Shown piece by piece: positions 18,516 through 38,198 of a stretch of 39,387 bases of DNA. Position 1 is the stretch's first letter, and every line of letters starts with the position of its first letter. Origin of the DNA: a virus; the IMG/VR virus record IMGVR_UViG_3300045988_050620, positions 1 through 39,387 of that record. One strand, 5' to 3'. The translations under genes and the position numbers were made by a program. Under the pieces are notes generated by a model. It saw nothing but the letters and a program-made list of their open reading frames with translations, was not told the origin of the DNA and did no database searches.

Positions 18516-18553
18516 TAAATTGGTACAAATCCTCTGAAAACCTGCTTTATAAT
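18516..18553 (+). promoter_or_regulatory. Late-promoter-like motif copy 1 (upstream of terS)
   Basis: TAAATTGGTACAAAT, 17 nt spacer, TATAAT. Confidence 0.65.
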
Positions 18554-18602
18554 TATGGTATGAGGTTAGAAATGTACCATTTGGCAGAGAAGAGGTGAGA
18601 TA

Positions 18603-19448
18603 GTGGAGAATTATGAGAGAGCAGAACAGGACTACATGGGCGGTATGAAGTACAAAGATATAGCAGAGAAGTACGGAACCACTATCAACACTGTTAAGAG
18701 CTGGAAGAAACGGTATGGGTGGAATCGGAAAGAGGGTGCGCCCAAAAGTAAAAAGGTGTGCACACAAAAAGGCAAGGGTGCACCCAAGGCGGTAGCGCCT
18801 ATAGATGATGGTACAAAAGAAACATTACAGAATAATGAACTCACACCGGAACAGCAGATGTTTTGCATATATTACAGCCGGACATTTAATGCAACCCAAA
18901 GCTATTTGAATGCCTATGGGTGCAGCTATGAAGTGGCGAATGCGAAAGGACCTCTATTGGTAGTGAAAGATAGTATTCACCGAGAAATAGAACGTTTGAA
19001 AGAAATCAAGCGCCAGCAGATAGTTGCTGGAACTGACGATATTGTGGAACTACAGATGCGTATTGCTTTTGCAGATATTGGAAACTATATGTCATTCGGG
19101 CAGAAAGAGATTGAGGATCCAGAGACAGGTATTGAATATATGATTAGCACTGTTGATCTGAAAGAATCAACGAACACAGATACACAGATTATCCAAGAGG
19201 TTAAGCGTGGAAAAGATGGTGTATCTATCAAGCTGGCAGACAGACAAAAGGCAATTGATTGGCTTACGATGTTCTTCGAGATGAATCCGACGGATAAGCA
19301 CCGGAAAGAATTTGATAAGCACAAGCTTGATCTGGAACTGCTTAAGCTGGAGATGCAAGCTAAAGAGAGTGCAGACGATACACCAGAGCAGGACAACTTC
19401 TTGGATGCGCTGAATGAATCAGCAAAGGAAGCGTGGTCAGATGATTGA
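18603..19448 (+). CDS. terS: Terminase small subunit
   Basis: N-terminal HTH YKDIAEKYGTTINTVKSWKKRYGW, then LTPEQQMFCIYY..NATQSYLNAY (Terminase_2-like). Directly upstream of terL. Confidence 0.88.
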   Translation: MENYERAEQDYMGGMKYKDIAEKYGTTINTVKSWKKRYGWNRKEGAPKSKKVCTQKGKGAPKAVAPIDDGTKETLQNNELTPEQQMFCIYYSRTFNATQSYLNAYGCSYEVANAKGPLLVVKDSIHREIERLKEIKRQQIVAGTDDIVELQMRIAFADIGNYMSFGQKEIEDPETGIEYMISTVDLKESTNTDTQIIQEVKRGKDGVSIKLADRQKAIDWLTMFFEMNPTDKHRKEFDKHKLDLELLKLEMQAKESADDTPEQDNFLDALNESAKEAWSDD

Positions 19449-20784
19449 TTGGACAGATTTTGACCGGCGGGTGCACAAGCTAAAAGAAAATGTGATGAAA
19501 AATGCCATCCGAATGAAGCAGAAGTATAAGCAGAACGGATTTACGTTTAAGCCATTTTCGAAGAAACAAAAGCAAGTTCTTACTTGGTGGTGCGAAGATT
19601 CACCGGTTAAAGATAAGGATGGAATCATAGCAGATGGTGCAATCCGAAGCGGTAAGACATTGTGCATGTCGTTAAGTTTTGTTCTGTGGGCGATGAGTAC
19701 ATTTAATATGCAGAACCTTGGCATGGCAGGAAAGACAATCGGATCATTTCGGCGAAATGTTCTGTTCTGGTTGAAACTCATGTTGAAGAGCCGGGGATAC
19801 AAGGTCGCAGACCATCGTTCTGACAATATGGTAGAGATATCCAAGGGCGATACAGTCAACTTTTTTTATATCTTCGGCGGTAAGGATGAACGGTCGCAGG
19901 ATCTGATTCAGGGTATCACGCTTGCCGGGATGTTCTTCGATGAAGTTGCGCTGATGCCGGAGTCATTTGTCAATCAGGCAACTGGACGATGCTCTGTAGA
20001 TGGTTCTAAGTTTTGGTTTAACTGTAACCCGGATTCTCCTAGCCATTGGTTCAAACTGAATTGGATTGATAAGGCTGATGAAAAGAAGCTGATCTATCTT
20101 CATTTTACGATGGATGATAACTTGTCTCTGTCGGAGAGAATCAAGGAAAGATATAGGGCAATGTATAGCGGCGTGTTCTATGATCGCTTCATCCTTGGCT
20201 TATGGGTGATTGCAGAAGGATTGGTCTATGGTATGTTCGACAAGGAAAGGAACATCTTTCATGGAGAGTATGCGTATAGCTCACAGTCGTCTTATTACCT
20301 ATCCATCGATTACGGAACTATGAACCCATTCGCGGTAGGCCTGATGGAACTGCAGAATAGCGGAAGGGTGCGGATGCTCCGGGAAGATCATTACTCAGGC
20401 AGAGAAACCGGAGTGACCATAGATAATGAAGCATATTACAAGATGATCCAGGAGGTGGCGGGGGATTTCCCAATCACATCCATTGTCATTGATCCGTCAG
20501 CTGCAGCTATGAAAGCGACAATCCGGAAGTATGGAGAGTTTACCTGCACAGACGGCAACAATGATGTGCTGAATGGGATTCAAGAGGTAACGAAGTATTT
20601 GAATCTCGGTATGCTCCAGATACATGAGAGTTGCACCGAGACGCAGAAAGAGTTTGGCGCGTATGCATGGGATGAAAAGGTAGTAGGAGAGGATCGAGTG
20701 ATTAAGGAATACGATCACCACATGGATCTTATCAGATATTTTATTTATACAGTAGCGCGCAGATATAACAGAGGACTTATATAA
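19441..20784 (+). CDS. terL: Terminase large subunit
   Basis: Walker A GAIRSGKT and Walker B MFFDEV, with a C-terminal nuclease region. ATG 19441 overlaps the terS stop and has an AAGGAAG RBS. Confidence 0.93.
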   Translation: MIDWTDFDRRVHKLKENVMKNAIRMKQKYKQNGFTFKPFSKKQKQVLTWWCEDSPVKDKDGIIADGAIRSGKTLCMSLSFVLWAMSTFNMQNLGMAGKTIGSFRRNVLFWLKLMLKSRGYKVADHRSDNMVEISKGDTVNFFYIFGGKDERSQDLIQGITLAGMFFDEVALMPESFVNQATGRCSVDGSKFWFNCNPDSPSHWFKLNWIDKADEKKLIYLHFTMDDNLSLSERIKERYRAMYSGVFYDRFILGLWVIAEGLVYGMFDKERNIFHGEYAYSSQSSYYLSIDYGTMNPFAVGLMELQNSGRVRMLREDHYSGRETGVTIDNEAYYKMIQEVAGDFPITSIVIDPSAAAMKATIRKYGEFTCTDGNNDVLNGIQEVTKYLNLGMLQIHESCTETQKEFGAYAWDEKVVGEDRVIKEYDHHMDLIRYFIYTVARRYNRGLI

Positions 20785-20795
20785 GGCGGTGAAAT

Positions 20796-22247
20796 ATGGG
20801 ATTATTAGCAGCAATTAAAGGATTAGTGAGTAGAATGTTCCAATCAGAGATGCAGGACCAGTTCCATGTGACTGGTATTACATCCGGTGATATGCAGAAA
20901 GCAATACAGAATTGGATGCTGATCTATAAAGGAGAGCCGGATTGGGTAGACCCAGAAGAGGGTATCAGGACAATTAAATTTGCAAAGTTTGTGTGTGAGG
21001 AAATCGCACGCCTTGCTACGCTTGCTATAGATGTGACGTTTGATGGAACAAGGAAAGAGTATATGACACAGTTCTGGGAGAAATCTGTACATGATCATAT
21101 CCGGGAGTGGACGGGCACCATGTGTGAATGTGGAACGGTCATTCTTAAACCGAATGGTGTTGGTGTGGACATTGTAACGCCAGACCGATTTGAGATCACA
21201 GAGCTAGATGGAAACCACAATATAACCGGTATTGTATTCCAAGATGATTACCAGGAGGGCAAAGAGCATTACACTAAGCTGGAATATCACAGATTCTTTA
21301 ATGTAAAGGTACGTATGACAGATGAAGAGAAGTATACAGATAAAACGTTTTATTCCATCTCGAATAGAGCATTTGTGTCGGAAAATTCCGGGGAACTTGG
21401 AAAACCTGTTGATCTGACCATGACAAAGTGGTCTGCTTTGCAGCCGGATGTGCATATAACAAAGAAGAGCGGAGACCAGATTGACTCGATGCTGTTTGGA
21501 CTGTTCCGGATGCCATCTACAAATGATGTGGATCCAAAAAGCCCGCTTGGATTATCAGCATTTGCAGATGCTATTGAGGAGTTAAAAGATTTGGATATAG
21601 CATACAGCCGGAATGCAGAAGAAATCTTCGACAGTAGGCGATTGGTAATGGTGGACGATCGGTTGGTACAGAAGCCGGCATACAGGGATGAAAAGGGTGT
21701 GACTGTAAGACCAAAAGTGAAGCTGCCTAAGTTTTTTAGAGCAATGTCCGGGATGGACGCGGAAGAAACATACCACGAAGTCAACCCTCAGCTCAATACA
21801 GATGTAAGAAAAAGTGGAATCAATCAGCAGCTATCCCTTACCGGAGTAAAGTGTGGATTCTCAAACGGTTATTTTGTTATAGATGAAAAAACAGGAATGA
21901 TAACAGCAACACAGGTGGAGTCAGATGATAGACGAACTATTCAGCTCATTAAAGACGTACGGGATGCAATGCAGGACTGCCTTGATGATTTGTTCTATGC
22001 GCAATCTGTATTTGCGGATTTGTACGGTCTTGCACCGGTTGGTGATTATGAGCCACAGTATGACTTCGGGGACATTACATACAATGAGGAAGAGGACAGA
22101 ATGAGAAACCTCACACTCGCCAACTCCGGATATATTCCAAAGTGGCAGTATTTGGTCAGATTCGAAGGGTATTCAGAGGAAGATGCAAAGGCGGCTGTTG
22201 CAGAAGCAAGCGGATCACAAGAAAAAGGATTATTCAACGAGGAATAG
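20796..22247 (+). CDS. Portal protein (SPP1 gp6-like)
   Basis: 483 aa, immediately after terL, with an acidic C-terminus. Confidence 0.88.
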   Translation: MGLLAAIKGLVSRMFQSEMQDQFHVTGITSGDMQKAIQNWMLIYKGEPDWVDPEEGIRTIKFAKFVCEEIARLATLAIDVTFDGTRKEYMTQFWEKSVHDHIREWTGTMCECGTVILKPNGVGVDIVTPDRFEITELDGNHNITGIVFQDDYQEGKEHYTKLEYHRFFNVKVRMTDEEKYTDKTFYSISNRAFVSENSGELGKPVDLTMTKWSALQPDVHITKKSGDQIDSMLFGLFRMPSTNDVDPKSPLGLSAFADAIEELKDLDIAYSRNAEEIFDSRRLVMVDDRLVQKPAYRDEKGVTVRPKVKLPKFFRAMSGMDAEETYHEVNPQLNTDVRKSGINQQLSLTGVKCGFSNGYFVIDEKTGMITATQVESDDRRTIQLIKDVRDAMQDCLDDLFYAQSVFADLYGLAPVGDYEPQYDFGDITYNEEEDRMRNLTLANSGYIPKWQYLVRFEGYSEEDAKAAVAEASGSQEKGLFNEE

Positions 22248-22249
22248 AC

Positions 22250-22657
22250 ATGCAGTATAACCAAACTGTGGGATGCGCAGATATCCACATAGACACCAAA
22301 AGAATAGATAATAATATACGGAATGCACAGAAACTGTTGAATATGCAGGTGGTTGCAGACTGTGACGAGTACATACCAATGGCGCAGGGAGCCTTGCGTG
22401 GATCGGCAAATTATCCAGATGGAATATATGGCGGACAGGTGGCATGGAATACCACATATGCACATTACCAGTATATGGGCGAATTGTATCTGACAGAAGA
22501 CGGTCGATCTTTTGCGAATAAAGGCGAGAGAAAATACCCTACAGGGATGCCACTTCAACATACTCCTGGAACTACAGACCATTGGTTCGAGCGGGCGAAG
22601 GAAACACACGGAAAACAATGGCTTGAACTGGTAAAACGAGAGGCAGGAAAAGGATAG
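22250..22657 (+). CDS. Minor capsid / head-associated protein
   Basis: ATG 22250 lies 2 nt after the portal stop. 135 aa with YAHYQYMGE...TDHWFERAK. Confidence 0.7.
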   Translation: MQYNQTVGCADIHIDTKRIDNNIRNAQKLLNMQVVADCDEYIPMAQGALRGSANYPDGIYGGQVAWNTTYAHYQYMGELYLTEDGRSFANKGERKYPTGMPLQHTPGTTDHWFERAKETHGKQWLELVKREAGKG

Positions 22658-23899
22658 ATGCTTACACCAGATTACTTTTATGGAAAATCTGACAAGTTAA
22701 TAGAGATGTACCAGGAGTTGGAAGATTGGATACTACATGACATTGCCATGCGTTTGGTGGAATCCGAGAGCCTATCCGGAACCGCAGACCGCGAACTGTG
22801 GAAACTTCAGCAGATGGGATTGCACCGGCAGGAGATTGTAAAACGCATTTCGGAGTTGACAGGCAAGAGCCGGAATGAAGTGCGCCGGTTGTTGCGAGAG
22901 AGTGTGCTCACTTCATTTTCGGACGATAAGGGTGTACTTGAAGGGCTGGCAGATGTACAACCGCCGTTGCAGAATAACATGGTGATTGCTGCAATGAATG
23001 CTGAACTGATGAAGACATTCGGAGAGTTGAGCAATCTTACAAACACAACCATAGACCAATCGCAACGGGATCTGCTGAACCTTCTGAACGAAGTAGATTT
23101 TCGTGTGGCGAGTGGGTTGCAGTCCTACAGTAGTGCTATATGCGAGGTATTGGATCGGTATGCAGAAAACGGTATGCGTGTGGATTATCCAACCGGTTCC
23201 TGGAGATCGTTGGAAGCAGCTGTTCGCTGTTGCATAGTGACTTCGATGAATCAGACAGCCGCACAGGTTACAAATAAGTATATTGTGGAAGCTGGGGCAG
23301 AATATGTTCTGGTGTCCGCGCATATGGGTGCACGGCATGACAAGAATAACCCTACAGGATTGCAGTCTCACGATTGGTGGCAAGGAAAAATATACAAGAT
23401 TCGTGGTTCTGATACGGATACACCGAATCTTCTCGAATCTACCGGATATGATATAGATCCGCAGACCGGAGAGGGACATGTGGTTAATCCTCTGGGATTG
23501 CATGGATATAATTGCCGGCACTCACACAAACCGTGGGATAAGTCTTTGCGAAATCCATATGTGGATGCAGACGGAAACCCCAAAATTGATGTGCATGAGA
23601 GCCAGCAGCTATATGATCTTCAGCAACAGCAAAGGGCAATGGAGCGCGCTATCCGAAAAACAAAACGGCAGTTACTTGTGAAAGAACAGGAGCTGAAAGC
23701 GTTTCCTGATGATGAGAACATCCGTGGAGATTATGATAAGCTGGCATACAGACTCCGGATGCAGAACCGGAAGTATGGAGAATTCTGTGCAGAGAATGAC
23801 TTGCAACGGCAGAGCGACCGCTTAAAGGTTGCCGGATTTAAAAAGTCGCAGGCAGCCAAGGCAAACGGCAGAGCCACGGCATATGCAAACACACTTTAA
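22658..23899 (+). CDS. Head morphogenesis protein (SPP1 gp7 / Mu F-like minor capsid protein)
   Basis: 413 aa, after the portal. The N-terminal LIEMYQELEDWILHDIAMRL matches the minor capsid protein 2 type. Confidence 0.8.
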   Translation: MLTPDYFYGKSDKLIEMYQELEDWILHDIAMRLVESESLSGTADRELWKLQQMGLHRQEIVKRISELTGKSRNEVRRLLRESVLTSFSDDKGVLEGLADVQPPLQNNMVIAAMNAELMKTFGELSNLTNTTIDQSQRDLLNLLNEVDFRVASGLQSYSSAICEVLDRYAENGMRVDYPTGSWRSLEAAVRCCIVTSMNQTAAQVTNKYIVEAGAEYVLVSAHMGARHDKNNPTGLQSHDWWQGKIYKIRGSDTDTPNLLESTGYDIDPQTGEGHVVNPLGLHGYNCRHSHKPWDKSLRNPYVDADGNPKIDVHESQQLYDLQQQQRAMERAIRKTKRQLLVKEQELKAFPDDENIRGDYDKLAYRLRMQNRKYGEFCAENDLQRQSDRLKVAGFKKSQAAKANGRATAYANTL

Positions 23900-23934
23900 A
23901 TTGGTACAAATATTCGGAGGAAATGTAGTAATAT
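23897..23934 (+). promoter_or_regulatory. Late-promoter-like motif copy 2
   Basis: TAAATTGGTACAAAT, 17 nt spacer, TAATAT. It overlaps the upstream stop codon. Confidence 0.55.
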
Positions 23935-23990
23935 AATATTGCAGATGTTTTCTAACCATTTGTGAACCTCCTTTTTATTCATAATCGTGG

Positions 23991-24019
23991 AAAGTGCCTT
24001 GAAATATAGGCACTTTTTT
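23991..24019 (+). terminator. Rho-independent terminator about 55-60 nt downstream of motif copy 2's -10
   Basis: AAAGTGCCT, loop TGAAATAT, AGGCACTTT, then TTTG. Confidence 0.75.
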
Positions 24020-24027
24020 GTATGCTC

Positions 24028-24065
24028 AAAATTGGTACAAATCTTTAATAATTCCATGATAAAAT
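24028..24065 (+). promoter_or_regulatory. Late-promoter-like motif copy 3
   Basis: AAAATTGGTACAAAT, 17 nt spacer, TAAAAT (preceded by TGA, i.e. extended -10-like). Confidence 0.6.
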
Positions 24066-24145
24066 TGTATTAACAAGTGAAAAGCACCGGACGGAGCGCA
24101 GGAATCCGTTCGCTACCCTACAAAAATTATAGGATTGTCGATATG

Positions 24146-24184
24146 GCACGTCCTGTTTGGGGCGTGCTTTTTTATTTGTTTTTT
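24146..24184 (+). terminator. Strong rho-independent terminator inside the leader upstream of the scaffold gene
   Basis: GCACGTCC, loop TGTTTG, GGGCGTGC (8 bp including one G-U pair), then TTTTTTATTTGTTTTTT. Confidence 0.8.
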
Positions 24185-24262
24185 GCCAGCTATGGAGTAA
24201 ATAGCAACTCACTTGTGCCGGACTGACCGGAGCAACAACTTGGAAAGAGAGAGGTAAGAGAC

Positions 24263-24874
24263 ATGGTAAAGATTATCAGCGAGTTGGAAAAAATTGGGTT
24301 TGAGATCACGGACGAACAGAAGGAATCTATCAAGAAGAGTATTGGTGAGGAATTGTATTCCAAGCAGGAACTTGATAAGAAGATCTCGAAAGTTGAAACC
24401 GAGCGTGACAACTACAAAAAGCGCGCAGATACCGCGGAGGACACCTTGAAAGGGTTCGAGGGCAAAGATTTTGACGAAATCACGAAAGATCGTGACGAGT
24501 GGAAAAGAAAAGCGGAACAGGCAGAAAAAGATTTCAATGCCAAAATTGCCGAGCGCGATAAAAACGATTTGTTGGAAAAGGCTTTCAAGGATATTAAATT
24601 TTCTTCTGAATCTGCAAAGAAAGCTGTTATGGCAGACATTGCAGCAAGCGTGACGGTGAAGGACGGGAAACTGATCGGTTTTAATGATTTGCTGGATGAA
24701 GCAAAAAAGAATGATGCAGGCGCATTTATTGACGAGCAGAGCCGGCAGAGCGATCAGAATCAGGCAACATTTACTACACCGATGGGAAGTGGTACTCATA
24801 CCGAGCCGATTACTGGTGATCCGAATAAGATGGATTTTGCTACGTACAAGAAGTGGCGTGAGCAGAATCAGTAA
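24263..24874 (+). CDS. Scaffolding protein (GP20-like)
   Basis: K/E-rich coiled coil, 203 aa, directly upstream of the major capsid gene. Confidence 0.85.
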   Translation: MVKIISELEKIGFEITDEQKESIKKSIGEELYSKQELDKKISKVETERDNYKKRADTAEDTLKGFEGKDFDEITKDRDEWKRKAEQAEKDFNAKIAERDKNDLLEKAFKDIKFSSESAKKAVMADIAASVTVKDGKLIGFNDLLDEAKKNDAGAFIDEQSRQSDQNQATFTTPMGSGTHTEPITGDPNKMDFATYKKWREQNQ

Positions 24875-24893
24875 TTTTTTGAGGAGGAATATT

Positions 24894-25985
24894 ATGGCAA
24901 ACAAAATTTTAACACCGCAGATTATTGCAAATGAAGCATTGATGGTACTGCAGAGCAACCTTACAATGGCGAATCTTGTACATAGAGATTATTCCGGCGA
25001 GTTTGTAAAGGTTGGGGATACCATCACTGTACGAAAACCGGCTACGTTTGTGGCTAAGAACTTTACGGGACAGACAGAAGCGCAGGACATTACAGAGGGT
25101 TCTGTAACCGTTAAGATGGACCGATTCAGAGATATCACGGTCAATGTTGGGTCTAAAGAAATGACATTAGACATTAAAAACTTCTCTGAGCAGGTGATAA
25201 CACCAGCAATGCAGGCTATGGCACAACAGATTGATGCGGATCTTCTGGCAGTAGGCATTTCTAAGGCTGGAAAGAAAGCAACTGTATCTAAGACACCGGC
25301 CATTACGGATATCGCAGGCGTAGGTAAAGCACTGGATCAGGCAAAAGCCCCACGTACAGACAGACGATTAGTCCTTCCGCCGACTATTCTGTACCAGTAC
25401 AACACACTGGACAATTTTGCAAAACAGTGCTACAAGGGCGATTCTATTGCCTTGAAAGAGTCTGAAATTGGCAAGGTTTACACCTGCGAAACTTTCATGT
25501 CGCAGAACTGCCCGGAAAATCAGAATAATAAGGCAGGAACAGCTACTTCATACAAAGTAGCAGGAACCAAGGATGCCACTCAGTTCACAGTATCTTCTGG
25601 AAAGGCAGAAACCGCAACCATTAACAAGGGAGATCAGCTGATTGTTAACGGATATCTGTATACTGTTACCGACAATGTGACACTTTCCGGTGGTGCTGGA
25701 ACTGTAAAAGTGGATCAGAACATTCCGGAAACTGTAGCTGAAACAGACGCGTTTGTCGTAAGCAAGGCACACGCTCTTGGATTCCACAGAAATGGTCTTG
25801 CACTTGTAACACGTAACCTTGAACTGCCGATGGGCAACAAGAACGCTTACATTGCATCTGCCGATGGCTTGGGTGTTCGTGTTGTATTCGATTACGACTC
25901 TGACCATAAGCAGGACAAAATCTCTTTTGATATCATTTACGGCATCAAGGAACTCAACGAGAACCTGCTTGTTGACTTTTCATAA
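24894..25985 (+). CDS. Major capsid protein
   Basis: GAGGAGG lies 6 nt upstream of ATG 24894. 363 aa, in the position after the scaffold. The part of the ORF upstream of 24894 overlaps the scaffold gene and is not coding. Confidence 0.88.
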   Translation: MANKILTPQIIANEALMVLQSNLTMANLVHRDYSGEFVKVGDTITVRKPATFVAKNFTGQTEAQDITEGSVTVKMDRFRDITVNVGSKEMTLDIKNFSEQVITPAMQAMAQQIDADLLAVGISKAGKKATVSKTPAITDIAGVGKALDQAKAPRTDRRLVLPPTILYQYNTLDNFAKQCYKGDSIALKESEIGKVYTCETFMSQNCPENQNNKAGTATSYKVAGTKDATQFTVSSGKAETATINKGDQLIVNGYLYTVTDNVTLSGGAGTVKVDQNIPETVAETDAFVVSKAHALGFHRNGLALVTRNLELPMGNKNAYIASADGLGVRVVFDYDSDHKQDKISFDIIYGIKELNENLLVDFS

Positions 25986-26001
25986 GGAAAGGGGATTTCT
26001 G

Positions 26002-27429: not shown

Positions 27430-27444
27430 CAGGAGGAAATACAC

Positions 27445-29226: not shown

Positions 29227-32200
29227 GTGGCAGATTATGATGGCAGCATAAGAATAAACACACAAATTGATACGAAAAACGCATCCAGCCAGATGCTACG
29301 TTTGGAGAACCAAATTTCCAAAACTGCCAAGAAAGCGGCAGATCTTACCGAAAAAATGCGGCAGATGGAAAGTCAGAAGATTCCCACAGAGGAATATAAG
29401 AATATTACAGATGCGTTACATAGATCCACAGCTGAATTTGACAAGTTATTACAGCGGCAGCAGGAAATGATTGCGCGTGGAAAAACATCTGGTGCAGCGT
29501 GGGATTCGCTTGATCGTAAAATCGAAGAGGTTGGCGCCGATATTCGAGCCGCTGAAAAATACCAGTCAAAAATGGCAAAAGAAGGTACTGCATATCTGGA
29601 TAAAGGGGCTATCCGTGCAACTGACGAATATAAAAAGTTGTCCTCTCAGCTTAAAGATACTAATGAACAAATGCAAGTTCTTGCGCGCCGACACGAAGAA
29701 TTGGCCGCGAAAGAGAATAAGGTTTCCGGCAGCGCCAAGAGTGCAGGAAAGAGCACAGGGAGCTGGCTTGACAATTTTTCAGGGAAAACCAGAAAAGCAA
29801 GCGGTTTGGTAAGTGCCTTCGCGTCCAGAATTAGAGGAATTGCGCTTTCCTTGTTTGTATTTAACTGGATAACGCAAGGCTGGAATGCAATGATTTCTGC
29901 CGTAAAAGACGGTACCCAGAATATGGCAAGGTATTCCAGTGATGTGAATGCAAAAATGTCGGCTCTTGTTAGTGCGGTAGCAACTCTCAAAAATGCATTC
30001 GGGGCATTAGCCGCTCCGATTATAAGTGCAGTCGGGCCGGCGCTTACCTACCTTATAAATATGCTTACAGCCGCAATCAATAAGGTAAACCAGTTTATAT
30101 CAGCACTGACAGGAAAAAAGACTTGGACGAAAGCCACTACCCAAACGAAGAATTATGCAGCTGGACTTGATGCGGCCGCCTCGAAAGCAGATAAGGCTAC
30201 GAAGGCGGCGAAAAAATTAAAAGGGCAGCTACAATCGTTTAATGAGCTGAATGTAATAGATTCCAATAAAGATTCCGGCTCTGGCGGCTCCGGTGGTTCT
30301 GGTGGCTCCGGTGGCGGTGGTGGAGTAGGCGATCTGTATGAAGAGGTACCAATTGACCAGAATATTGCTGATCTTGCGGACAAAATCAGAGAAGCAATTA
30401 AATCCGGAGATTGGGAAGGCCTTGGAAAGACTATAAGGCAGGAAATCACAGATACCATAGGGAAAATCCCGTGGGATGAAATATATAAGAAAGCTGAAAA
30501 TTTCGGAACTGGTTTTGCAAGTTTCTTGAACGGCCTGTTTTCCGAGGACAAAAAAGGAAACAGCGTATTTACAGCCACAGCAGATGTTATAGCCGGAGCA
30601 CTGAATACAGCTATTTTTGCATCACTTGGATTTACAAATAAATTTGATTTCAAGACATTCGGAAATAATGTGGCGCATGGATTCAATGAATTTTTCCGGA
30701 AATTTAAGTGGAAGCATTGTGCAGAAGCAATAAACGGATGGGTTGATGGATTCTGGAATTTTGTGATTGGGTTTTTTAGTGGGTTAAGTTGGGAGGATGT
30801 TTTCAATGGCTTAAAAACATTCCTTACATCGTTATCACCAGAGACATTAGCAACTATAATTGGATTTTGGTCATTAAAGCATGCCGGAAATATTCTTTAT
30901 AAAGTGTTAAAATCCAGTTTTACAGACAACCTAGACACCAAACTTGGTGGTGCAATAAGAAAAAAATTATCAAAAATATCACTCGGAAATGGAATTGCCG
31001 GCACTCTTGCAACAGGTTTTTTGATAGCTGCAACAGTTTATGTAACAACTAAATTTTCGGATGATTACAAAGAGTGGAAAAACAATATTGATAAATATGG
31101 GTTTGATGCTGGGCGTAAAAAAACAGCGAGAGACAATAAGGCAAATCCATATAATAATGGAAATGCTGTAACAGATAAAGAAATAAGAGATTATGAAGAA
31201 CGCGCACGAAAACGCGCATTGAACAATTCCGCTAATCCTTATAATGCTAACAGTAGATATTCTAAGTCCAAGAATAAAATTTTAAATCCTGTTGAAGCCA
31301 ATCCTTATAATTCTAACGGTAAAAAGGTAAAGCAAACTGTTGAAATTGAGGCAAAAATTAAAACAAAGGTATCTGATCTTTGGAATGGGATAAAGAAAAA
31401 ATGGGATTCTACCAAAGATAAAGCAGTTGAATTTAAAGCCAATGTGAAGAATGACGCAAAAAACTGGTGGGATGATACAAAAAAATGGTGGGGACAGAAA
31501 GCAGATAAGGTAAAGGAGTTTTCTACAAATGTAAAAAATGATTCGGCAACATGGTGGAAAAACACCAAGATGTGGTGGGGGAAAAAAGTAGGAAAGGTAA
31601 AAGAGTTTTACACGGACGTAAAGAATGAATCGGCAACATGGTGGAAAAACGTAAAAAATTGGTGGTCAAGTACAACTGCCGGGAAAGAAGTGCGAAAATT
31701 TGAAGCAAATGTGAAAAAGTCTGGTGGAACCTGGTGGAAAGATGTAAAAGACGCATGGAATGCTTCTACTGCTGGTAAAACCCTTAAAATTGGGATTTCT
31801 TTTGCAAAAGATGCTATTAAGAGCCTATGGAACAATGTAAGTAACTTTTTCTCTGGGAAAACAGTTAATGTCAAAACGAAAGCAGCAGCCAAGAAAGCTG
31901 GCGGTGGAATCTATACCGGTGGTATGTGGCATAACATAGCACATTATGCAGTAGGAACCGAGAACGCACCAGCAGGACAGCTTTTTATCGCGCGTGAAGC
32001 AGGACCGGAGCTTGTCGGAACAATTGCAGGACATACGTCCGTTATGAACAATGACCAGATTGTGGCATCTGTATCGGATGGAGTTGCGCGTGCGGTACGA
32101 TCCGTAATGGCAACCGGAAACCAGAATGTAAATGTTGTGTTTAAAGTGGAAGGAGATCCGAATGGAATCTTCCACGTAACACAGCAGAAAGCAAATGAAT

Positions 32201-32238
32201 ACTACCGGGCAACCGGAAACCCAGCATTTTTATTTTAG
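29227..32238 (+). CDS. Tape measure protein
   Basis: 1003 aa with coiled-coil, hydrophobic segments, a Gly/Ser run and Trp-rich tandem repeats. The position is canonical. Confidence 0.92.
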   Translation: MADYDGSIRINTQIDTKNASSQMLRLENQISKTAKKAADLTEKMRQMESQKIPTEEYKNITDALHRSTAEFDKLLQRQQEMIARGKTSGAAWDSLDRKIEEVGADIRAAEKYQSKMAKEGTAYLDKGAIRATDEYKKLSSQLKDTNEQMQVLARRHEELAAKENKVSGSAKSAGKSTGSWLDNFSGKTRKASGLVSAFASRIRGIALSLFVFNWITQGWNAMISAVKDGTQNMARYSSDVNAKMSALVSAVATLKNAFGALAAPIISAVGPALTYLINMLTAAINKVNQFISALTGKKTWTKATTQTKNYAAGLDAAASKADKATKAAKKLKGQLQSFNELNVIDSNKDSGSGGSGGSGGSGGGGGVGDLYEEVPIDQNIADLADKIREAIKSGDWEGLGKTIRQEITDTIGKIPWDEIYKKAENFGTGFASFLNGLFSEDKKGNSVFTATADVIAGALNTAIFASLGFTNKFDFKTFGNNVAHGFNEFFRKFKWKHCAEAINGWVDGFWNFVIGFFSGLSWEDVFNGLKTFLTSLSPETLATIIGFWSLKHAGNILYKVLKSSFTDNLDTKLGGAIRKKLSKISLGNGIAGTLATGFLIAATVYVTTKFSDDYKEWKNNIDKYGFDAGRKKTARDNKANPYNNGNAVTDKEIRDYEERARKRALNNSANPYNANSRYSKSKNKILNPVEANPYNSNGKKVKQTVEIEAKIKTKVSDLWNGIKKKWDSTKDKAVEFKANVKNDAKNWWDDTKKWWGQKADKVKEFSTNVKNDSATWWKNTKMWWGKKVGKVKEFYTDVKNESATWWKNVKNWWSSTTAGKEVRKFEANVKKSGGTWWKDVKDAWNASTAGKTLKIGISFAKDAIKSLWNNVSNFFSGKTVNVKTKAAAKKAGGGIYTGGMWHNIAHYAVGTENAPAGQLFIAREAGPELVGTIAGHTSVMNNDQIVASVSDGVARAVRSVMATGNQNVNVVFKVEGDPNGIFHVTQQKANEYYRATGNPAFLF
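31429..31780 (+). repeat. Four tandem coding repeats of about 29 aa (..KEFxxNVKNDxxxWWKNxKxWW..) inside the tape measure
   Basis: The repeats are visible in the protein: NVKNDAKNWWDDTKKWWGQK / NVKNDSATWWKNTKMWWGKK / DVKNESATWWKNVKNWWSST / NVKKSGGTWWKDVKDAWNAS. Confidence 0.7.
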
Positions 32239-32250
32239 GAGGTGGATTGA

Positions 32251-32670
32251 ATGGGATACGGCGGTTATTTAATCAAAGTCGGAAATTACACAGTTCCATT
32301 TGACTGTATACTGGCCAGCACATTTCAGTCCCACTTACTGGGGCAGGACAAAGATTCGTACAACGATGACAATGGGAAGTTACACAGGACAGCATTAAAG
32401 AACCAGGTGCTTAAGGCAGAGTGGCAGACTCCGGCCATGAACGAAAAGAAGTTTAATGCATTTATGAGTAACATAAATAAACAATATGTGGAGCAACGGC
32501 GCGAAAAGAAATGTCTTGTGACAGCATGGTGTCCGGAACTGGTGCGGTATGTGACTATGCATTGCTATGTTCCGGATATTACTCCGATAGTAGCATATGC
32601 AGATGAAAAAACGATTGAATATGACGGCTGGAGAATTGCTTTTATCGGATATGGCGGTGAGATTTTATGA
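32251..32670 (+). CDS. Distal tail protein-position gene (small Dit-like, putative)
   Basis: GGAGGTGG RBS. 139 aa, directly after the tape measure gene. Confidence 0.6.
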   Translation: MGYGGYLIKVGNYTVPFDCILASTFQSHLLGQDKDSYNDDNGKLHRTALKNQVLKAEWQTPAMNEKKFNAFMSNINKQYVEQRREKKCLVTAWCPELVRYVTMHCYVPDITPIVAYADEKTIEYDGWRIAFIGYGGEIL

Positions 32671-34919
32671 TAGGTAGCAAAAACAAGAAACTTTATTATG
32701 AAAGCTCGATTGATAAGCAACTTAATATAGAAGTAATCGGAACGAAACATGTGATTGACAACTCCATGAGAGAACAGGACACATTCACGCTGACCGAGAC
32801 TCTGAATGACGGTACGGAACTGAAATTTGGCTCATGCCTGCCGAATCAGATTTCTTTTACCGGACGCGAGGTACCAATTGCCACAAAAGGCATGAAGCTA
32901 CGTGTGACGGAAACTCTGGAAGGAAATGAGGACGATCCGTTTGAATATGGTACATATACGGTACAGTCTGATACCCCGACAGCAGACCGGACGAAGCGCC
33001 AGATTGTTGCCTATGATGCCATGTATGACATAATCAATGCTGATGTAAAAAGCTGGTATGACGGTTTATCTTTTCCAATGACTTTGAAAGCATTTCGTGA
33101 CAGCTTTTTCGCACACCTTGGAATTGAGCAGAAAGAGACAAACCTTGTAAATGATTCCATGACAATAAACAAAACGCTGGTAACTACACAGTCCGATGAT
33201 TCCAGCGTAACGGCAGAAGCTACGATAAGCGGCAAGACAATAATTGAAGCGATTTGTGAGATCAACGGGGCATTTGGAAATATCGGGAGAGACGGTAGAT
33301 TTGAGTATGTGATTTTAAGGGCGATTACATCTGCACTGTATCCGGCAGAAGATCTGTACCCGCGTGATGATCTCTTTCCTTCGGATGCGAACACCGAAAG
33401 CATGAACGGGCACTATATCACATTTGACTATGAAGCGTTCCAGAGCCAAGCAATAACACAGTTGGAGATCCGGGCAGATGATTCTACTGCCGGGGCTATT
33501 GTGGGAACATCTGGAAACAATTATGTTATTTCCGGCAACTTCCTTATAAGCGACAAGACCGGGGCTGAAATGAAGCAGATTGCGAATAATCTGCTGCCGG
33601 TAATTGCACAGGCAGAATACACACCGATTAAAAGTTGTACATGCGTTGGTAATCCGTGCCTAGAGTTGGGAGATCCGATTCGTTTCAACACTTCCAGGGA
33701 GATTGTAGAAACATACATCTTACAGCGCACCCTTACAGGAGTGCAAAGCAAACGCGATTCCATTGTTTCAGCAGGAACAGAAACCCACGCCATGAAAAAT
33801 CCAACTACACGGGAGACGGTGGAAGCATTAAAAAGACGTACCCATATTTTGGAGGAAAATGCAGACCATCTTCAATCCACGTATGAGGATTTAGAAAAAA
33901 ATACCTCTACGAGATTCGAACAGACGGATGAACTGATTGCTACAGAGGCAAAGCGTGCTACAGATGCAGAGGGCGAATTGGAGTCTTCGTTTAAAGAAGC
34001 CGCCGATTCTATCCAGATGGAAGTGAGCAGAAAGGTCGGAGAAGATGAAATCCGAAGCAAATTCGCCATGAGCCCCGAGAATGTGGATATCGAATCCGGA
34101 CAAGTAAACTTTAAGTCAAACACGCTAACCATTGATTCCACCAATTTTCAGCTTGATGAATATGGAAAAGCGACAATTGTGGATTCGCTGAATTTTAATT
34201 CAACGGCGCTTGGTGATGATATTGCAATTATCGGGCTTGACGGAAAAGGTAGACCTATGTTGCAAAACATATTCATTGACCTAGACACTGTAACGGATTC
34301 AAACTCGGAATCCTTGGCAACCGAAAGTTATGTTGACGATTCGCTGAGTGACTACGCAACCAAAAGCGAATTGCCAAGTGGGTATTTTACAGACGTAGAC
34401 TATACACTTAATGATAAATCTACAACCAAGTATTCGCCTAGACACTTTAATAAAGTGGCTGATTTTGGTTCAAGGGAAAGTATCTTGGATATCGAGGGTC
34501 TTTTGATTTCTATTCCGAGTTCCGATAAAAGGCTGAAAAATAATATACAATCATTAAGGGATATTAAAAGCGTTTATATGGCAATGCGCCCAGTTGAGTA
34601 TACATGGAAATCCGGATACATCACGCAGCACACAGGCTTACAGTTTGGTTTAATTGCGCAGGATTTAGAGAAGATTTTGCAGGATGCCGGATTGTCCGAT
34701 AGCGGACTTGTACTAAAAGAAGATGCCGAAGAGGATGAAAAAGCAATTCACGGAGATTCAAAGACATGGAAAATTGACAAGGAAAATCTCCATGCAATGC
34801 ACATACAGATGATCCAGATGCAGCAGAAAGAAATCGAACTTTTGCAGCAGAAAAACGAAGATCTGGAACGCAGATTATCAGCGCTAGAAAGGAGTGTGAA
34901 CCATGCAGAAAATTTATAG
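32667..34919 (+). CDS. Tail-associated (Tal-like) structural protein with a C-terminal S74 intramolecular chaperone domain
   Basis: 750 aa. The C-terminal SDKRLKNNIQSL...YTWK...GLIAQDLEKI...coiled coil is the auto-cleaving chaperone signature (about 34500..34919). Confidence 0.85.
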   Translation: MIGSKNKKLYYESSIDKQLNIEVIGTKHVIDNSMREQDTFTLTETLNDGTELKFGSCLPNQISFTGREVPIATKGMKLRVTETLEGNEDDPFEYGTYTVQSDTPTADRTKRQIVAYDAMYDIINADVKSWYDGLSFPMTLKAFRDSFFAHLGIEQKETNLVNDSMTINKTLVTTQSDDSSVTAEATISGKTIIEAICEINGAFGNIGRDGRFEYVILRAITSALYPAEDLYPRDDLFPSDANTESMNGHYITFDYEAFQSQAITQLEIRADDSTAGAIVGTSGNNYVISGNFLISDKTGAEMKQIANNLLPVIAQAEYTPIKSCTCVGNPCLELGDPIRFNTSREIVETYILQRTLTGVQSKRDSIVSAGTETHAMKNPTTRETVEALKRRTHILEENADHLQSTYEDLEKNTSTRFEQTDELIATEAKRATDAEGELESSFKEAADSIQMEVSRKVGEDEIRSKFAMSPENVDIESGQVNFKSNTLTIDSTNFQLDEYGKATIVDSLNFNSTALGDDIAIIGLDGKGRPMLQNIFIDLDTVTDSNSESLATESYVDDSLSDYATKSELPSGYFTDVDYTLNDKSTTKYSPRHFNKVADFGSRESILDIEGLLISIPSSDKRLKNNIQSLRDIKSVYMAMRPVEYTWKSGYITQHTGLQFGLIAQDLEKILQDAGLSDSGLVLKEDAEEDEKAIHGDSKTWKIDKENLHAMHIQMIQMQQKEIELLQQKNEDLERRLSALERSVNHAENL

Positions 34920-35634
34920 CAGGACGTATTGGGAGAACTTACCGAGTGAAAAAACCTCCATAAATGAGAAACGGCTAAACAACGCCGAAAAAGGGATTGA
35001 CGATCTGGATGATCGTATAGTTGCTATGGACGCGGCAAAAGTCGATCTTGTCAAGGCGAATAATCTTGTAGAAGAAATTACTTACGAGGAAGCAACCGGT
35101 ATATTGACCATTACTAAAATGAATGGCTCTAAAGATATAATTGATACTAAACTTGAAAAGCTGGCTGTGAATTTTAGCTATAACCCGCAGACACAGCAAC
35201 TTGTGATAACGCTAGATGATGGTACAACGCAGAATGTAGATTTATCCGCGCTAATCACGCAGTATGAGTTCTTGGATTCCGATACGATCGCATTTGCAAT
35301 CGGCAGTGACGGCAAGGTGTCCGCAATCGTGAAAGAGGGAAGTATCCAAGAAAAGCATCTGCGCCCGGATTATCTTGCAGATATTAAAGTGGAATCTGCC
35401 AAGGCTGTAGCATCTGCCAAAAGTGCAAAAGAGTCCGAAACCAACGCGGCAAAATCTGCCACAGATTCCAAAAATAGCGTAGACCGAGCGCAGGGAATCG
35501 AAAACGAGATTAACAAGAAACTCACAATGACAGAATTTGATGTGAATGAGGATGGGGAGTTGATTTACACGGACAATTCTGCTTATAACTTTGTCGTTGA
35601 CAATGACGGAAATTTAAATTGGGAGGTGGCTTAG
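34903..35634 (+). CDS. Tail fibre / baseplate-distal structural protein
   Basis: 243 aa. The N-terminal WENLPSEKTSINEKRLNNAEKGIDDLDDRI is common in Firmicutes phage fibre proteins, followed by an A/K/S-rich coiled segment. Confidence 0.7.
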   Translation: MQKIYSRTYWENLPSEKTSINEKRLNNAEKGIDDLDDRIVAMDAAKVDLVKANNLVEEITYEEATGILTITKMNGSKDIIDTKLEKLAVNFSYNPQTQQLVITLDDGTTQNVDLSALITQYEFLDSDTIAFAIGSDGKVSAIVKEGSIQEKHLRPDYLADIKVESAKAVASAKSAKESETNAAKSATDSKNSVDRAQGIENEINKKLTMTEFDVNEDGELIYTDNSAYNFVVDNDGNLNWEVA

Positions 35635-35635
35635 A

Positions 35636-36409
35636 ATGGCTATAGCAGGAAGAGTAGCAATTGTACCAAAGGGCGATTGGAGCGCAAATGCTACATATAA
35701 GAGATTGGATGCAGTGACTTATAACAATACATTGTATTTTGCGAAAAAGGAAGTTCCGGCAGGAACAGCGACGAGCAATACAGAATATTGGTCTAAGTCT
35801 ATCGTGGGTGGTGCTAGTGCGATTGCAACAACAGAGGATGCCGGAGTTGTAAAGCCGGACGGAAAGAGCATGAGCGTAGATGAGAGTGGAACGCTTAGCA
35901 TTAACTTGGATGGAACCACAATTACATTAGATGAAGCGAAAAACGTCATAAAGTTGGCAGATACCTTAAAGGATGCCATCAATGGAGCGTTTCCGGCGGC
36001 GAATGTGGCGAATAATCAGATCACCACAGTGGAAGGCTTCGCACTTGATGCGCGGCAGGCGAACCCGAATATTGATGGAACACTTGCAAAGCAGATAAGT
36101 GATTTAAACAATGATTTAAATGATCACCTATATGGTTTTCGCTGGAGAAAATTTATCAATACTTGGACATCTGCATCGCAAATTGATTCCGGTTGTGGTA
36201 TCTATAATATTGGTGAAATATCATCAGATTATTGGAGCTCTATTTGTAAAAATGAGAAATTGCAAAATGTTGGCGATTACGTACTGATTATATTCCAATG
36301 GAATGGAACAGAATCAGCCCTTCGTTTTTCCGTTGGGCTTTTAATAAGTTGTCGAATGAGTAATTTAATTTATGTAACCGTCTGGAATGGAGAATTTAAT
36401 TTAACATAG
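35636..36409 (+). CDS. Tail fibre / receptor-binding protein (currently carrying tip variant 1)
   Basis: 257 aa. The N-terminal GDWSANATYKRLDAVTYNNTLYFAKK is fibre-like. It is the last structural gene. Confidence 0.8.
   Translation: MAIAGRVAIVPKGDWSANATYKRLDAVTYNNTLYFAKKEVPAGTATSNTEYWSKSIVGGASAIATTEDAGVVKPDGKSMSVDESGTLSINLDGTTITLDEAKNVIKLADTLKDAINGAFPAANVANNQITTVEGFALDARQANPNIDGTLAKQISDLNNDLNDHLYGFRWRKFINTWTSASQIDSGCGIYNIGEISSDYWSSICKNEKLQNVGDYVLIIFQWNGTESALRFSVGLLISCRMSNLIYVTVWNGEFNLT
36106..36117 (+). repeat. Left inverted repeat AAACAATGATTT inside the fibre CDS
   Basis: The exact reverse complement is at 36712..36723. The extended match is 15/17 (36104..36120 versus 36709..36725). Confidence 0.7.
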
Positions 36410-36449
36410 AAACATCATATTATGATGAAATAATTTGCATGGACTAAAA

Positions 36450-36722
36450 TTAACTGATTTTGTGCCATGAGCTCCATCCATTGGCAAGATCCACATATCC
36501 GTTGTAAAATTTGAGGTAAATTCCATCCAAAGCTGTTGTAATAAATATAAGAAATCTCCACTTATTTTCACTTCCATATACAATAAACAATAAACCATAG
36601 TCACAATTATCAGGCAAATTTTTGGTAGTATTGTTTGTTAAATATATGCCCGGTTGATTTTGTAGATCTAAAGCATCTACTAATAGTAGATTCGTATTAA
36701 ACAAAGACTTCAAATCATTGTT
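36450..36722 (-). other. Silent alternative fibre C-terminal cassette (tip variant 2): no start codon, no RBS
   Basis: The minus-strand frame is open from the codon after TGA (36725..36723) to TAA (36452..36450). It begins N-N-D-L exactly as fibre residues 158..161 and resembles the expressed tip. Confidence 0.7.
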
Positions 36723-36723
36723 T
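36712..36723 (-). repeat. Right inverted repeat (AAACAATGATTT on the minus strand)
   Basis: See 36106..36117. Confidence 0.7.
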
Positions 36724-36728
36724 CATGG

Positions 36729-36766
36729 AAATATGGTACAAACACAGCCCGAACGGGCGTTATACT
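36729..36766 (+). promoter_or_regulatory. Late-promoter-like motif copy 4 (variant)
   Basis: AAATATGGTACAAAC, 17 nt spacer, TATACT. The spacer contains CGAACGGGCGTT. Confidence 0.5.
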
Positions 36767-36843
36767 GATGTTTAATCAAAATTATCGAACAAATATTCGA
36801 ATGAACTTATAAACCATTTTTATTAAAGAAAGGAATTAAAAAC

Positions 36844-37242
36844 ATGGATAAAATTATTTTAAAAGATCAGACCAGCTTCGAGGTTGCCGATGGTGCAAGC
36901 CTTGGAAACATCCAGATCAAAGCCGAGAACTTTGAAGCCATTAAAACGATTACGGATGCATTTACTGCGGACAACCTTGCGGAAGTGACATTTAAGCACA
37001 ATAATGAGGCATCCGGAAAGTACACAGATCTGAAGTGTGATGGGTTTACATACGCACCGAATACGGACGAGGCAGGTAAGGAAGATGGAACCTACACGGT
37101 AACTATCAGGCTGCGAACCAAAACCGAAATTGAAAAGCGCCTTGATGCGCTGGAAACAGGACAGGTAACATTGCAACAGGGACATGAGTCCAACGCTGGA
37201 GCAATCGAAGATCTGGCCGGAATGATCGGAGGTGAAGAATAA
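36844..37242 (+). CDS. Hypothetical phage protein (XkdW-position)
   Basis: 132 aa with a weak AAAGGAA SD-like element upstream. Lies after the fibre genes. Confidence 0.75.
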   Translation: MDKIILKDQTSFEVADGASLGNIQIKAENFEAIKTITDAFTADNLAEVTFKHNNEASGKYTDLKCDGFTYAPNTDEAGKEDGTYTVTIRLRTKTEIEKRLDALETGQVTLQQGHESNAGAIEDLAGMIGGEE

Positions 37243-37376
37243 TGGCATGTAGCAATCTTATTAAATTCTATGTCCGCCGGATTACGGTTGATAAAAAAAT
37301 GACGATTGATGATGTTCCAGAACGCTGGCGTGAACAGGTGCGGGCAGAAATTGAAAAGGCAGAGCAGGCAGTGTAG
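37242..37376 (+). CDS. Small XkdX/CD1375-like protein (44 aa)
   Basis: TAATG coupling with the upstream gene. MACSNLIKFYVRRITVDKKMTIDDVPERWREQVRAEI matches the ..KMT.D.VPE....V.. pattern of small tail-module proteins. Confidence 0.6.
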   Translation: MACSNLIKFYVRRITVDKKMTIDDVPERWREQVRAEIEKAEQAV

Positions 37377-37377
37377 T

Positions 37378-37399
37378 GGCATCTTCGGATGCCTTCTAT
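37378..37399 (+). terminator. Hairpin GGCATC-TTCG-GATGCC plus a T-rich tail
   Basis: 6-bp GC-rich stem with a UUCG tetraloop, followed by TTCTATT. Confidence 0.45.
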
Positions 37400-37432
37400 T
37401 GACTTGTGTGATAACTATTTTTATCATATAAT
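37399..37432 (+). promoter_or_regulatory. Sigma-70-type promoter of the membrane-protein cassette
   Basis: TTGACT, 17 nt spacer, TATCAT (alternatively TTGTGT, 17 nt spacer, TATAAT). Confidence 0.6.
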
Positions 37433-37456
37433 AAAAGAAAAAGGAGAAAATAAATT

Positions 37457-38110
37457 ATGGAAACTTTTTTATATGTACTAGGCAATAATGAGGTTGTTTC
37501 AGAAATTTTGATTATATTTATAATGTCATTGACCCTTTTGGTGTCTGTTATTTCCACTTACAAATCAAAGCAAAAAATTGATTTGAAAACGATGAAAAAT
37601 GAAGCGGATGAGATTGATAAAGCCATTCAGAACATTAGTATATTATATAGAAATACATCCGACGGAAGAGAGAATAAGCCTAATGAAAAAAATATATTAA
37701 ACATGATGATGGATAATGTAAGTGAATTAAGAGAGTATTATGTTATAAGTAAGCAACAAGCAAGAAAATCTTTTTCAGCAGCACTTTTTATATGCTTTTT
37801 TGGAATTTTTATTTATGTGTTAGGAATAATTACATATATTATATTTGATAAGAACATATCTATTATTTCTGTAATAGGGGGAACTGTAGTAGAGGTTATT
37901 GCAGGTTTATTCTTTTGGTTATATAGAGAAGCAACTAAGCAGTTAGGAATATATCATCAAAGACTCGGGTCTACAGAGAAATATTTAACTGTTATACAAA
38001 TTATTAAAGAGATGCCAAAGGAAGAACAAGCGGAATTATTTAAAGGATTAACAAAAGCAATACTGACTGATAATAGAGAAATTATCTCTCATGAAAACGA
38101 AAAAGGATGA
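37457..38110 (+). CDS. Membrane protein: N-terminal TM, coiled linker, then a 2TM hairpin module (SLATT / TRADD-N-associated 2TM-like, putative)
   Basis: 217 aa, markedly AT-rich. The segment ELREYYVISKQQARKSFSAALFICFFGIFIYVLG...VIGGTVVEVIAGLFFWLYREATKQL shows the 2TM hairpin. It has its own promoter and terminator. Confidence 0.8.
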   Translation: METFLYVLGNNEVVSEILIIFIMSLTLLVSVISTYKSKQKIDLKTMKNEADEIDKAIQNISILYRNTSDGRENKPNEKNILNMMMDNVSELREYYVISKQQARKSFSAALFICFFGIFIYVLGIITYIIFDKNISIISVIGGTVVEVIAGLFFWLYREATKQLGIYHQRLGSTEKYLTVIQIIKEMPKEEQAELFKGLTKAILTDNREIISHENEKG

Positions 38111-38128
38111 AATTGCGGGGATTTCAAG

Positions 38129-38153
38129 CAGGCCATAACAGGCCTGTTTTTTT
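38129..38153 (+). terminator. Rho-independent terminator
   Basis: CAGGCC, loop ATAACA, GGCCTG, then TTTTTTT. Confidence 0.8.
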
Positions 38154-38160
38154 AATGCCT

Positions 38161-38198
38161 TAAATTGGTACAAATAGTGCACGAATAGGCATTATACT
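38161..38198 (+). promoter_or_regulatory. Late-promoter-like motif copy 5 (upstream of the lysis genes)
   Basis: TAAATTGGTACAAAT, 17 nt spacer, TATACT. Confidence 0.65.

Follow-up and report, generated by a model that had tools for sequence, protein, structure and literature searches.

The window analysed here is the whole of IMG/VR virus record IMGVR_UViG_3300045988_050620, a complete record of 39,387 bp (positions 1 to 39,387) with direct terminal repeats and a G+C content of 42%. Its predicted gene order matches that of a temperate siphophage. The late genes run in the order terS, terL, portal, minor capsid proteins, scaffold and tail genes, followed by an accessory gene at 37457..38110, the holin gene (38523..38750) and the endolysin gene (38752..39291). 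At five predicted late-gene promoters, P1 to P5, all on the + strand, a phage-specific box, AAATTGGTACAAAT, stands in for the -35 element. The last gene of the early block, 17563..17799 on the + strand, lies just upstream of P1 and terS. It encodes a protein with a 78-residue core (88 residues from a possible TTG start at 17533), which is the candidate late activator for these promoters.

P1 (18516..18553) comprises the box TAAATTGGTACAAAT at 18516-18530, a 17-nt spacer and the -10 hexamer TATAAT at 18548-18553. A terminator-like hairpin with a T-tract (18482..18508, + strand; AGAGAGG-N8-CCTCTCT-TTTTT) lies just 5' of P1, is found in the same layout in relatives and is predicted to close the early/accessory transcription unit. 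P1 precedes the terS, terL, portal and minor capsid genes and is kept upstream of terS in relatives. P2 (23897..23934) carries the same 15-mer, TAAATTGGTACAAAT, at 23897-23911, over the TAA stop of the minor capsid gene, and the -10 hexamer TAATAT at 23929-23934. A second terminator-like hairpin with a T-tract (23992..24019, + strand; AAGTGCCT-N8-AGGCACTT-TTTT), also kept in relatives, separates P2 from P3. P3 (24028..24065) consists of the box AAAATTGGTACAAAT at 24028-24042 and the -10 hexamer TAAAAT at 24060-24065, and precedes a leader and the scaffold and capsid genes. The leader contains an intrinsic-terminator-like hairpin (24145..24175, + strand) with a 10-pair stem, six G-C pairs and a T-tract, nearly invariant in relatives, and the scaffold ATG at 24263 lies 3' of it. 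P4 (36729..36766) has the variant box AAATATGGTACAAAC at 36729-36743 and the -10 hexamer TATACT at 36761-36766, and precedes an open reading frame (ORF) at 36844..37242 that encodes 132 residues and belongs to no family. P5 (38161..38198), with the box TAAATTGGTACAAAT at 38161-38175 and the -10 hexamer TATACT at 38193-38198, lies just 3' of a terminator (38126..38156, + strand) that follows the accessory gene 37457..38110. It precedes 38219..38521, the holin gene and the endolysin gene.

Further observations concern the leaders. The P1 leader (18554-18602, TATGGTATGAGGTTAGAAATRTACCATTTGGCAGAG) is kept in relatives and contains a 6-7 bp inverted repeat, ATGGTAT/ATACCAT, which would fold into a hairpin at the 5' end of the terS mRNA. 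The P3 leader (24066-24262, ~190 nt) varies hardly at all between diverged relatives, Roseburia phage Jekyll among them, and its conservation exceeds that of the flanking genes. By their sequence, the P3 leader and the P2 terminator region may be structured RNAs or attenuators; an Rfam scan of the window returned no family.

A preliminary description of this DNA had listed five copies of the box, always intergenic, each with a -10 hexamer 17 nt past the 15-mer. Spacing and hexamers (TATAAT, TAATAT, TAAAAT, TATACT and TATACT) proved correct for all five. So did the overlap of the second copy with a stop codon (it begins with the TAA of 22658..23899) and the location of copies 1, 3 and 5 directly 3' of a hairpin and T-tract, with the flanks ATGCCC, ATGCTC and ATGCCT. 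An exact search for the core TGGTACAAA nevertheless gave six matches in the window, all on the + strand (18521, 18809, 23902, 24033, 36734 and 38166), against 0.31 expected; none of 100 shuffles reached six. The sixth copy, at 18809 within terS, had been overlooked. It spells the terS codons Asp-Asp-Gly-Thr-Lys (DDGTK) and has no -10 hexamer. Since in relatives the Gly codon changes without regard to which promoter variant the phage has, the copy at 18809 was rejected as a promoter site and is regarded as a coding coincidence. A position weight matrix built from relatives only was scored on both strands of the window. The five top-scoring sites were exactly the five intergenic copies, led by P1, with a sharp drop in score after them. 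No TTGACA-like hexamer was found 16-18 nt from the -10 hexamer at the five sites, and a sigma-70 consensus scan does not call them because they lack a -35 element. The same scan does call the sites at 17810 (TTGACA-17-TATCAT) and 37399 (TTGACT-17-TATCAT), in agreement with their earlier assignment as sigma-70-type promoters without the box. A literature search on the box sequence turned up only primers.

The upstream regions of terS homologues taken from 80 IMG/VR loci were compared and fall into two classes. The box-type class has a terminator, ATGCC, TAAA[T/A]TGG[T/C]ACAAAT, 17 nt and TATAAT, in this order. In the other class, a sigma-70-like promoter precedes a different conserved leader, which is closed by a terminator. 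In loci of this second class (L142-L198), which have a homologous terS and neither the box nor the small gene, the leader ~120 nt 5' of terS reads TAGYGCC-N3-GAGCCRA, then a hairpin, then YCGGCTC-T5, with the terminator at its end. An Rfam scan of four such loci returned no family, and the sequence suggests that this leader may be an antitermination-type late switch.

The distance between box and -10 hexamer was evaluated on all distinct TGGYACAA contexts in loci that had been retrieved by protein similarity, to avoid a bias toward the -10 hexamer. Among 101 such contexts, TAnnnT occurs at an offset of 27 in 49, at 26 in none and at 28 in one, and the contexts other than those with TAnnnT are coding-like. 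The resulting consensus is AAAtTGGYACAAAT-N17-TAtAAT, with the -10 hexamer as TAWAAT across sites, and the whole mostly lies just 3' of a T-tract. The box is thus 14 nt long, spans ~-44 to -30, and is single and asymmetric; its T-to-C variant disrupts a partial GTAC symmetry. A sigma-54 promoter (TGGCAC-N5-TTGC) was considered and rejected. In the C variant TGGCAC is followed by AAATCCaCTG, without TTGC at -12, and both the existence of the T variant and the TATAAT at N17 are at odds with such a promoter.

Absence of the motif from otherwise syntenic relatives had been named beforehand as a refuting outcome; relatives in fact keep the box at the same positions and with the same spacing. Five other near-complete records contain the box and -10 hexamer two to four times each, all on the terS strand, and a reversed-pattern control gave no match. 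As in the window, the sites are found 5' of terS, in tandem ahead of the scaffold gene, and close to the lysis end. The tandem P2/P3 layout is kept in G003, G004, G005 and Jekyll, and in G002-G005 the lysis end, too, has a box-type promoter nearby. Jekyll, an isolated Roseburia phage (LR596902), shows the same layout, with TTGGCACAAAT-N17-TATAAT, and the same box pattern is found in Lachnospiraceae prophages. Human-gut metagenomes and the genomes of Lachnospiraceae (Roseburia, Lachnobacterium, Acetatifactor, Waltera) are the sources of the relatives; a megablast comparison of the late region with GenBank phages gave no match. When IMG/VR was scanned with the bare 14-mer, mostly single chance matches were obtained, and the scan became specific once the -10 hexamer was added. 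Over 110 matches to the combined box and -10 pattern were found in IMG/VR, as were 313 matches to the gene. One close relative, L127 (IMGVR_UViG_3300045988_000557), has kept the P1 box and has lost a segment with the -10 hexamer and part of the leader, and may be a defective variant.

All ORFs within 4 kb upstream of terS were clustered and compared between box-type loci and the others. The cluster that contains the window's small gene (as 17533..17799) occurs in all 22 box-type terS loci and in none of 33 loci of the other class. A family profile run on whole records found the gene in 5/5 box-type records, which served as the positive control, and in 0/5 records of the other class, whose completeness is 87-100% and which have 0-1 box-like matches each. 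The distance from the end of the gene to the box in relatives is 142-190 nt, or 750-2200 nt where cargo has been inserted; in Jekyll the gene lies at 20001-20249 and the box at 20278. This distribution indicates that the 78-residue protein encoded just upstream is the predicted reader of the box.

Two other candidates for the cognate factor were rejected on the same comparison. The cassette encoding a LexA-DNA-binding-domain-only protein (17861..18115), whose gene the preliminary description had also proposed to test, is present at four box-type loci versus two others, and the second tyrosine recombinase (16542..17540) at nine versus eight. The recombinase bears as well on the idea that the repeats are duplication remnants or sites of recombination or packaging with no role in transcription. 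Its proximity would suit that idea, as would the spacer bases CGAAyrGGCrT that copies 4 and 5 have in common, as had been reported before. However, the recombinase cluster is not tied to the box, the flanks beyond the box and the -10 hexamer differ among copies, and the sites are strand-specific, intergenic and phased with the -10 hexamer in many diverged phages. That the repeats have no role in transcription is extremely improbable.

The variable base of TGG[T/C]ACAA is common to all promoter copies within a genome. The window has five T copies, G005 four and G001 two; G003 and G004 have four C copies each, G002 has two and Jekyll four. Such concerted change of dispersed copies requires a shared trans-acting reader. 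The box base is tracked by residue 46 of the predicted recognition helix in the small protein, which is Asn with T and Arg, Thr or Ser with C. T boxes are accompanied by RNC, KNC or RNG (39 distinct proteins) and C boxes by RRS, RTH, RRH, KSN, KSH or RTG (12 distinct proteins), with no exception among the 51 distinct proteins, and prophages of cellular genomes follow the same rule. Distant members keep the geometry, with RSQ paired with TTTGGGACAAAT-N17-TAAAAT (GGGAC), KSN with GGCAC and KTD with GGCAC.

The AlphaFold2 model of the 78-residue protein (predicted local distance difference test, pLDDT, 85) comprises four helices. The last two are predicted to form a helix-turn-helix-like unit, with the family pattern SYDxLEAxxG-xLPI-SRNCFYRRRR and, in the protein of 17563..17799, the sequence SYDLMEAHHG-ILPI-SRNCFYRRRR. 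A single-sequence model of a 143-residue distant relative (L408) was unusable (pLDDT 52.6). Family proteins are 72-80 residues long; at 50% identity there are 66 representatives among 1.8 billion proteins, all named 'hypothetical' by their sources. Scans of 30 family members against Pfam, NCBIfam and PHROG (E up to 10 for Pfam and NCBIfam) found no recurrent family of described function, and the sole recurrent library link is a weak match to phrog_11237 (function unknown), at its C-terminus. When PDB sequences were searched with a profile at E up to 10, no match was obtained. The best Foldseek match in the PDB is region 4 of the ECF sigma factor sigma-H (TM-score 0.54, E ~8, not significant), and the best viral fold match, in BFVD, is an uncharacterised protein (E 0.07).

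The preliminary description had allowed for an alternative sigma factor, and the box could in principle be the -35-type element of such a factor, encoded by phage or host. An invariant distance between box and -10 hexamer is typical of sigma recognition. The segment VKGTSYDLMEAHH of the small protein aligns, through G-x-SYD-x-LEA, with residues 151-163 of E. coli RpoE, in its region-4 helix-turn-helix (hhalign P 0.014, probability 3%, not significant), and 2 of the 30 family members give faint matches to ECF sigma models. These likenesses to sigma region 4 are suggestive and fall below significance. However, a four-helix protein of 78 residues leaves no room for region 2, and models for sigma factors (Sigma70_r2 and Sigma70_r4 included), RinA, ArpU and DUF1492 found no match among the ~50 window ORFs scanned, which cover the early and regulatory regions. 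The -10 hexamer is of the housekeeping TATAAT type, and a host sigma factor would not account for a box base that changes with the phage protein. A sigma factor of its own for this promoter class is accordingly a poor candidate, and we consider it improbable.

The likeness to region 4 can be accommodated in another way, which we put forward tentatively and think more doubtful than not. The 78-residue protein may be a free-standing surrogate for sigma region 4, docking on host RNA polymerase in place of, or on top of, region 4 of sigma-A and giving the holoenzyme a new -35 specificity. Docking of this kind would account for a 17-nt spacing that never varies. One base of the box would then be read by helix residues 46 and 47, with Asn specifying T, Arg, Thr or Ser specifying C, and Ser-Gln specifying G.

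Several side observations concern the small gene. Contigs 3300045988_113000, _122746 and _139489 (L371/L375, L334/L364 and L339/L378) each carry two paralogous copies ~4.5 kb apart, and the box lies close 3' of the downstream copy only. In the distant member L416/L417, with helix RSQ and a GGGAC box, a gene for a 153-residue protein with a faint Sigma70_r4 match comes after the small gene and is itself followed by terS, an arrangement that may be a two-component version of the switch. Locus L404 (Roseburia faecis JCM 17581, NZ_CP173697.1) retains a remnant of the small gene, residues 32-78, with no box nearby, and is probably a decaying prophage.

The reading that we favour, and hold to be probable, is that the small protein is a late activator acting at the -35 position of host sigma-A promoters. 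The five sites would be the late promoters of a temperate Lachnospiraceae siphophage, with a sigma-A-type -10 hexamer (TAWAAT), no -35 hexamer, and in its place the AAAtTGGYACAAAT box 17 nt from the -10 hexamer. We infer that transcription begins at these sites and that the protein binds and activates them. The early operon ends with the gene for the 78-residue protein, which would bind the box via its C-terminal helix-turn-helix and recruit or reposition host RNA polymerase at promoters otherwise too weak for the sigma-A holoenzyme. The packaging and head genes (P1), the genes from scaffold to tail (P2/P3), one accessory gene (P4) and the lysis genes (P5) would thereby be switched on jointly. 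The invariant spacing suggests a fixed contact with the polymerase. The preliminary description had proposed that these late promoters form a class of their own, dependent on a phage factor for which 17563..17799 is the candidate, and conservation, co-occurrence and covariation in relatives lend this proposal their support. The gene is the last of the early block and precedes terS, a position that matches that of known late activators (PMC3753634) and favours activation.

The same protein-site pair can be read with the opposite sign. Co-occurrence and covariation point to a cognate pair and do not give the sign of its effect, and the box overlaps the -35 position, where repressors bind too. 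The small protein would then be a repressor or other operator-binding protein, or the box an operator for another factor, with silent promoters that are fired in some different way. We judge this to be quite unlikely. With neither a -35 hexamer nor an extended -10 the promoters would be weak on their own and repression unneeded, exact phasing with the -10 hexamer favours contact with the polymerase, and the gene is placed where late activators are (PMC3753634).

A number of points weigh against activation by the small protein. Co-occurrence as such fits an activator and a repressor equally. The T/C covariation is perfect yet rests on only one or two independent evolutionary events: the T/C label maps on the protein tree as two changes, and a single one is forced by well-supported branches. 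That all dispersed copies in a genome change in concert is the stronger argument. Foldseek comparisons of this putative DNA-binding protein with the PDB and BFVD gave nothing significant. A transcript from P2 would meet a terminator after ~80 nt, and P3 is also followed by a terminator ahead of any gene. The output of P2 and P3 may be short RNAs or regulated read-through, which an activator leaves unexplained. The earlier claim that the sites stand ahead of late operons needs qualification for copies 2 and 3, where terminators precede the scaffold gene; at P1, P4 and P5 no terminator intervenes between the -10 hexamer and the first gene.

These terminators would be accounted for if the box were the loading site of a Q-like antiterminator, with constitutive promoters whose transcripts end at terminators close by and a small protein that renders the polymerase terminator-resistant. 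An intrinsic terminator lies within ~80-100 nt of P2 and of P3, as tR' does after lambda pR', and the near-invariance of the P3 leader would also suit this explanation. Against it, P1, P4 and P5 offer no terminator to overcome, constitutive firing is unlikely where there is no -35 hexamer, and the box sits at -35 itself and not in the spacer. Antitermination at the box thus seems very unlikely, and activation at the -35 position is retained as the preferred reading.

The remaining features of the window are those of the early region and of accessory genes. The integrase, metalloprotease and repressor are encoded on the - strand, and the Cro-like regulator, ERF recombinase, RusA, YopX and C5 methyltransferase on the + strand. 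An ORF of 116 residues stands beside 17861..18115 in the gene order. A near-perfect Gram-positive LexA (Cheo) box, CGAACAAATATTCG, lies at 36786-36799, ~20 nt past the -10 hexamer of P4, and a second, CGAACACATGTTTT, at 17820-17833, in the spacer of the sigma-70-type promoter of the LexA-DNA-binding-domain cassette; overall, the pattern is not enriched in the window (44 matches versus 46 expected). The accessory gene 37457..38110 has its own sigma-70-type promoter and encodes a CyanoTRADDas_TM domain with two transmembrane segments (E 4e-17), a domain type linked to effector modules of conflict systems.

Roseburia, Lachnobacterium, Acetatifactor and Waltera belong to the Lachnospiraceae, which are abundant in the gut, and the switches that control late genes in phages of these bacteria are uncharacterised. 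AAAtTGGYACAAAT-N17-TAWAAT and its cognate protein would let late operons and the boundaries of accessory ('moron') genes be annotated in hundreds of gut phage genomes. Genetically difficult Clostridia would gain from them a compact and orthogonal pair of promoter and activator, and the natural T/C/G variants would give a ready-made specificity-swap experiment. Should the protein indeed stand in for sigma region 4, human-gut phages would have a widespread promoter-specificity module that is both minimal and reprogrammable. Roseburia phage Jekyll is mitomycin C-inducible in R. intestinalis L1-82 and is therefore a tractable test system; the paper describing it contains no discussion of late promoters (bioRxiv 10.1101/575076).

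The closest described systems are the late activators of the Ltr superfamily (RinA, ArpU, LtrA/Sigma70_r4, LtrB/DUF1492 and LtrC) of Gram-positive temperate phages and their terS promoters (Quiles-Puchalt et al. 2013, PMC3753634). As in those systems, the early region ends with a gene for a small protein, directly 5' of terS, and the protein would be specific for its own late promoter; homologous packaging modules are likewise combined with exchanged regulator and promoter modules, here seen in the box-type and other terS loci (PMC3753634). However, the small protein is about half the size, at 72-80 residues, and no RinA, ArpU, DUF1492 or Sigma70_r4 family recurs among the 30 family members. 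An hhalign comparison with 80alpha RinA was not significant (probability 0.35%). The region recognised by Ltr activators consists of three 7-nt direct repeats upstream of the promoter, whereas here a single 14-nt box without repeats lies at -35 with fixed spacing. Ltr activators serve one terS promoter, whereas four or five dispersed, terminator-insulated promoters are found here.

In its architecture alone, the promoter class resembles the middle promoters of phage T4, in which a MotA box is combined with a sigma-70 -10 hexamer, sigma is appropriated by MotA and AsiA, and many copies define a temporal class. In both cases a non-palindromic phage box takes the place of the -35 element, and its distance from a good TAnnnT -10 hexamer is fixed; here, too, many copies would mark a temporal class. 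The box is, however, centred near -37 here and at -30 in T4, no co-activator was identified here, and the window ORFs scanned gave no MotA or AsiA Pfam match. Small DNA-binding proteins that activate several promoters lacking a -35 element, bound at or next to that position, are also known from lambda CII (pRE, pI and pAQ), Mu Mor and C, and P2 Ogr. The likeness lies in a small phage protein, several promoters without a -35 hexamer and binding at -35, which is proposed here. Their sites are direct repeats (TTGC-N6-TTGC) or dyads, unlike the single, asymmetric box, and no homology with the small protein was detected. The predicted late promoters of this phage represent a familiar kind of phage switch, in which the regulator family and the consensus are new.

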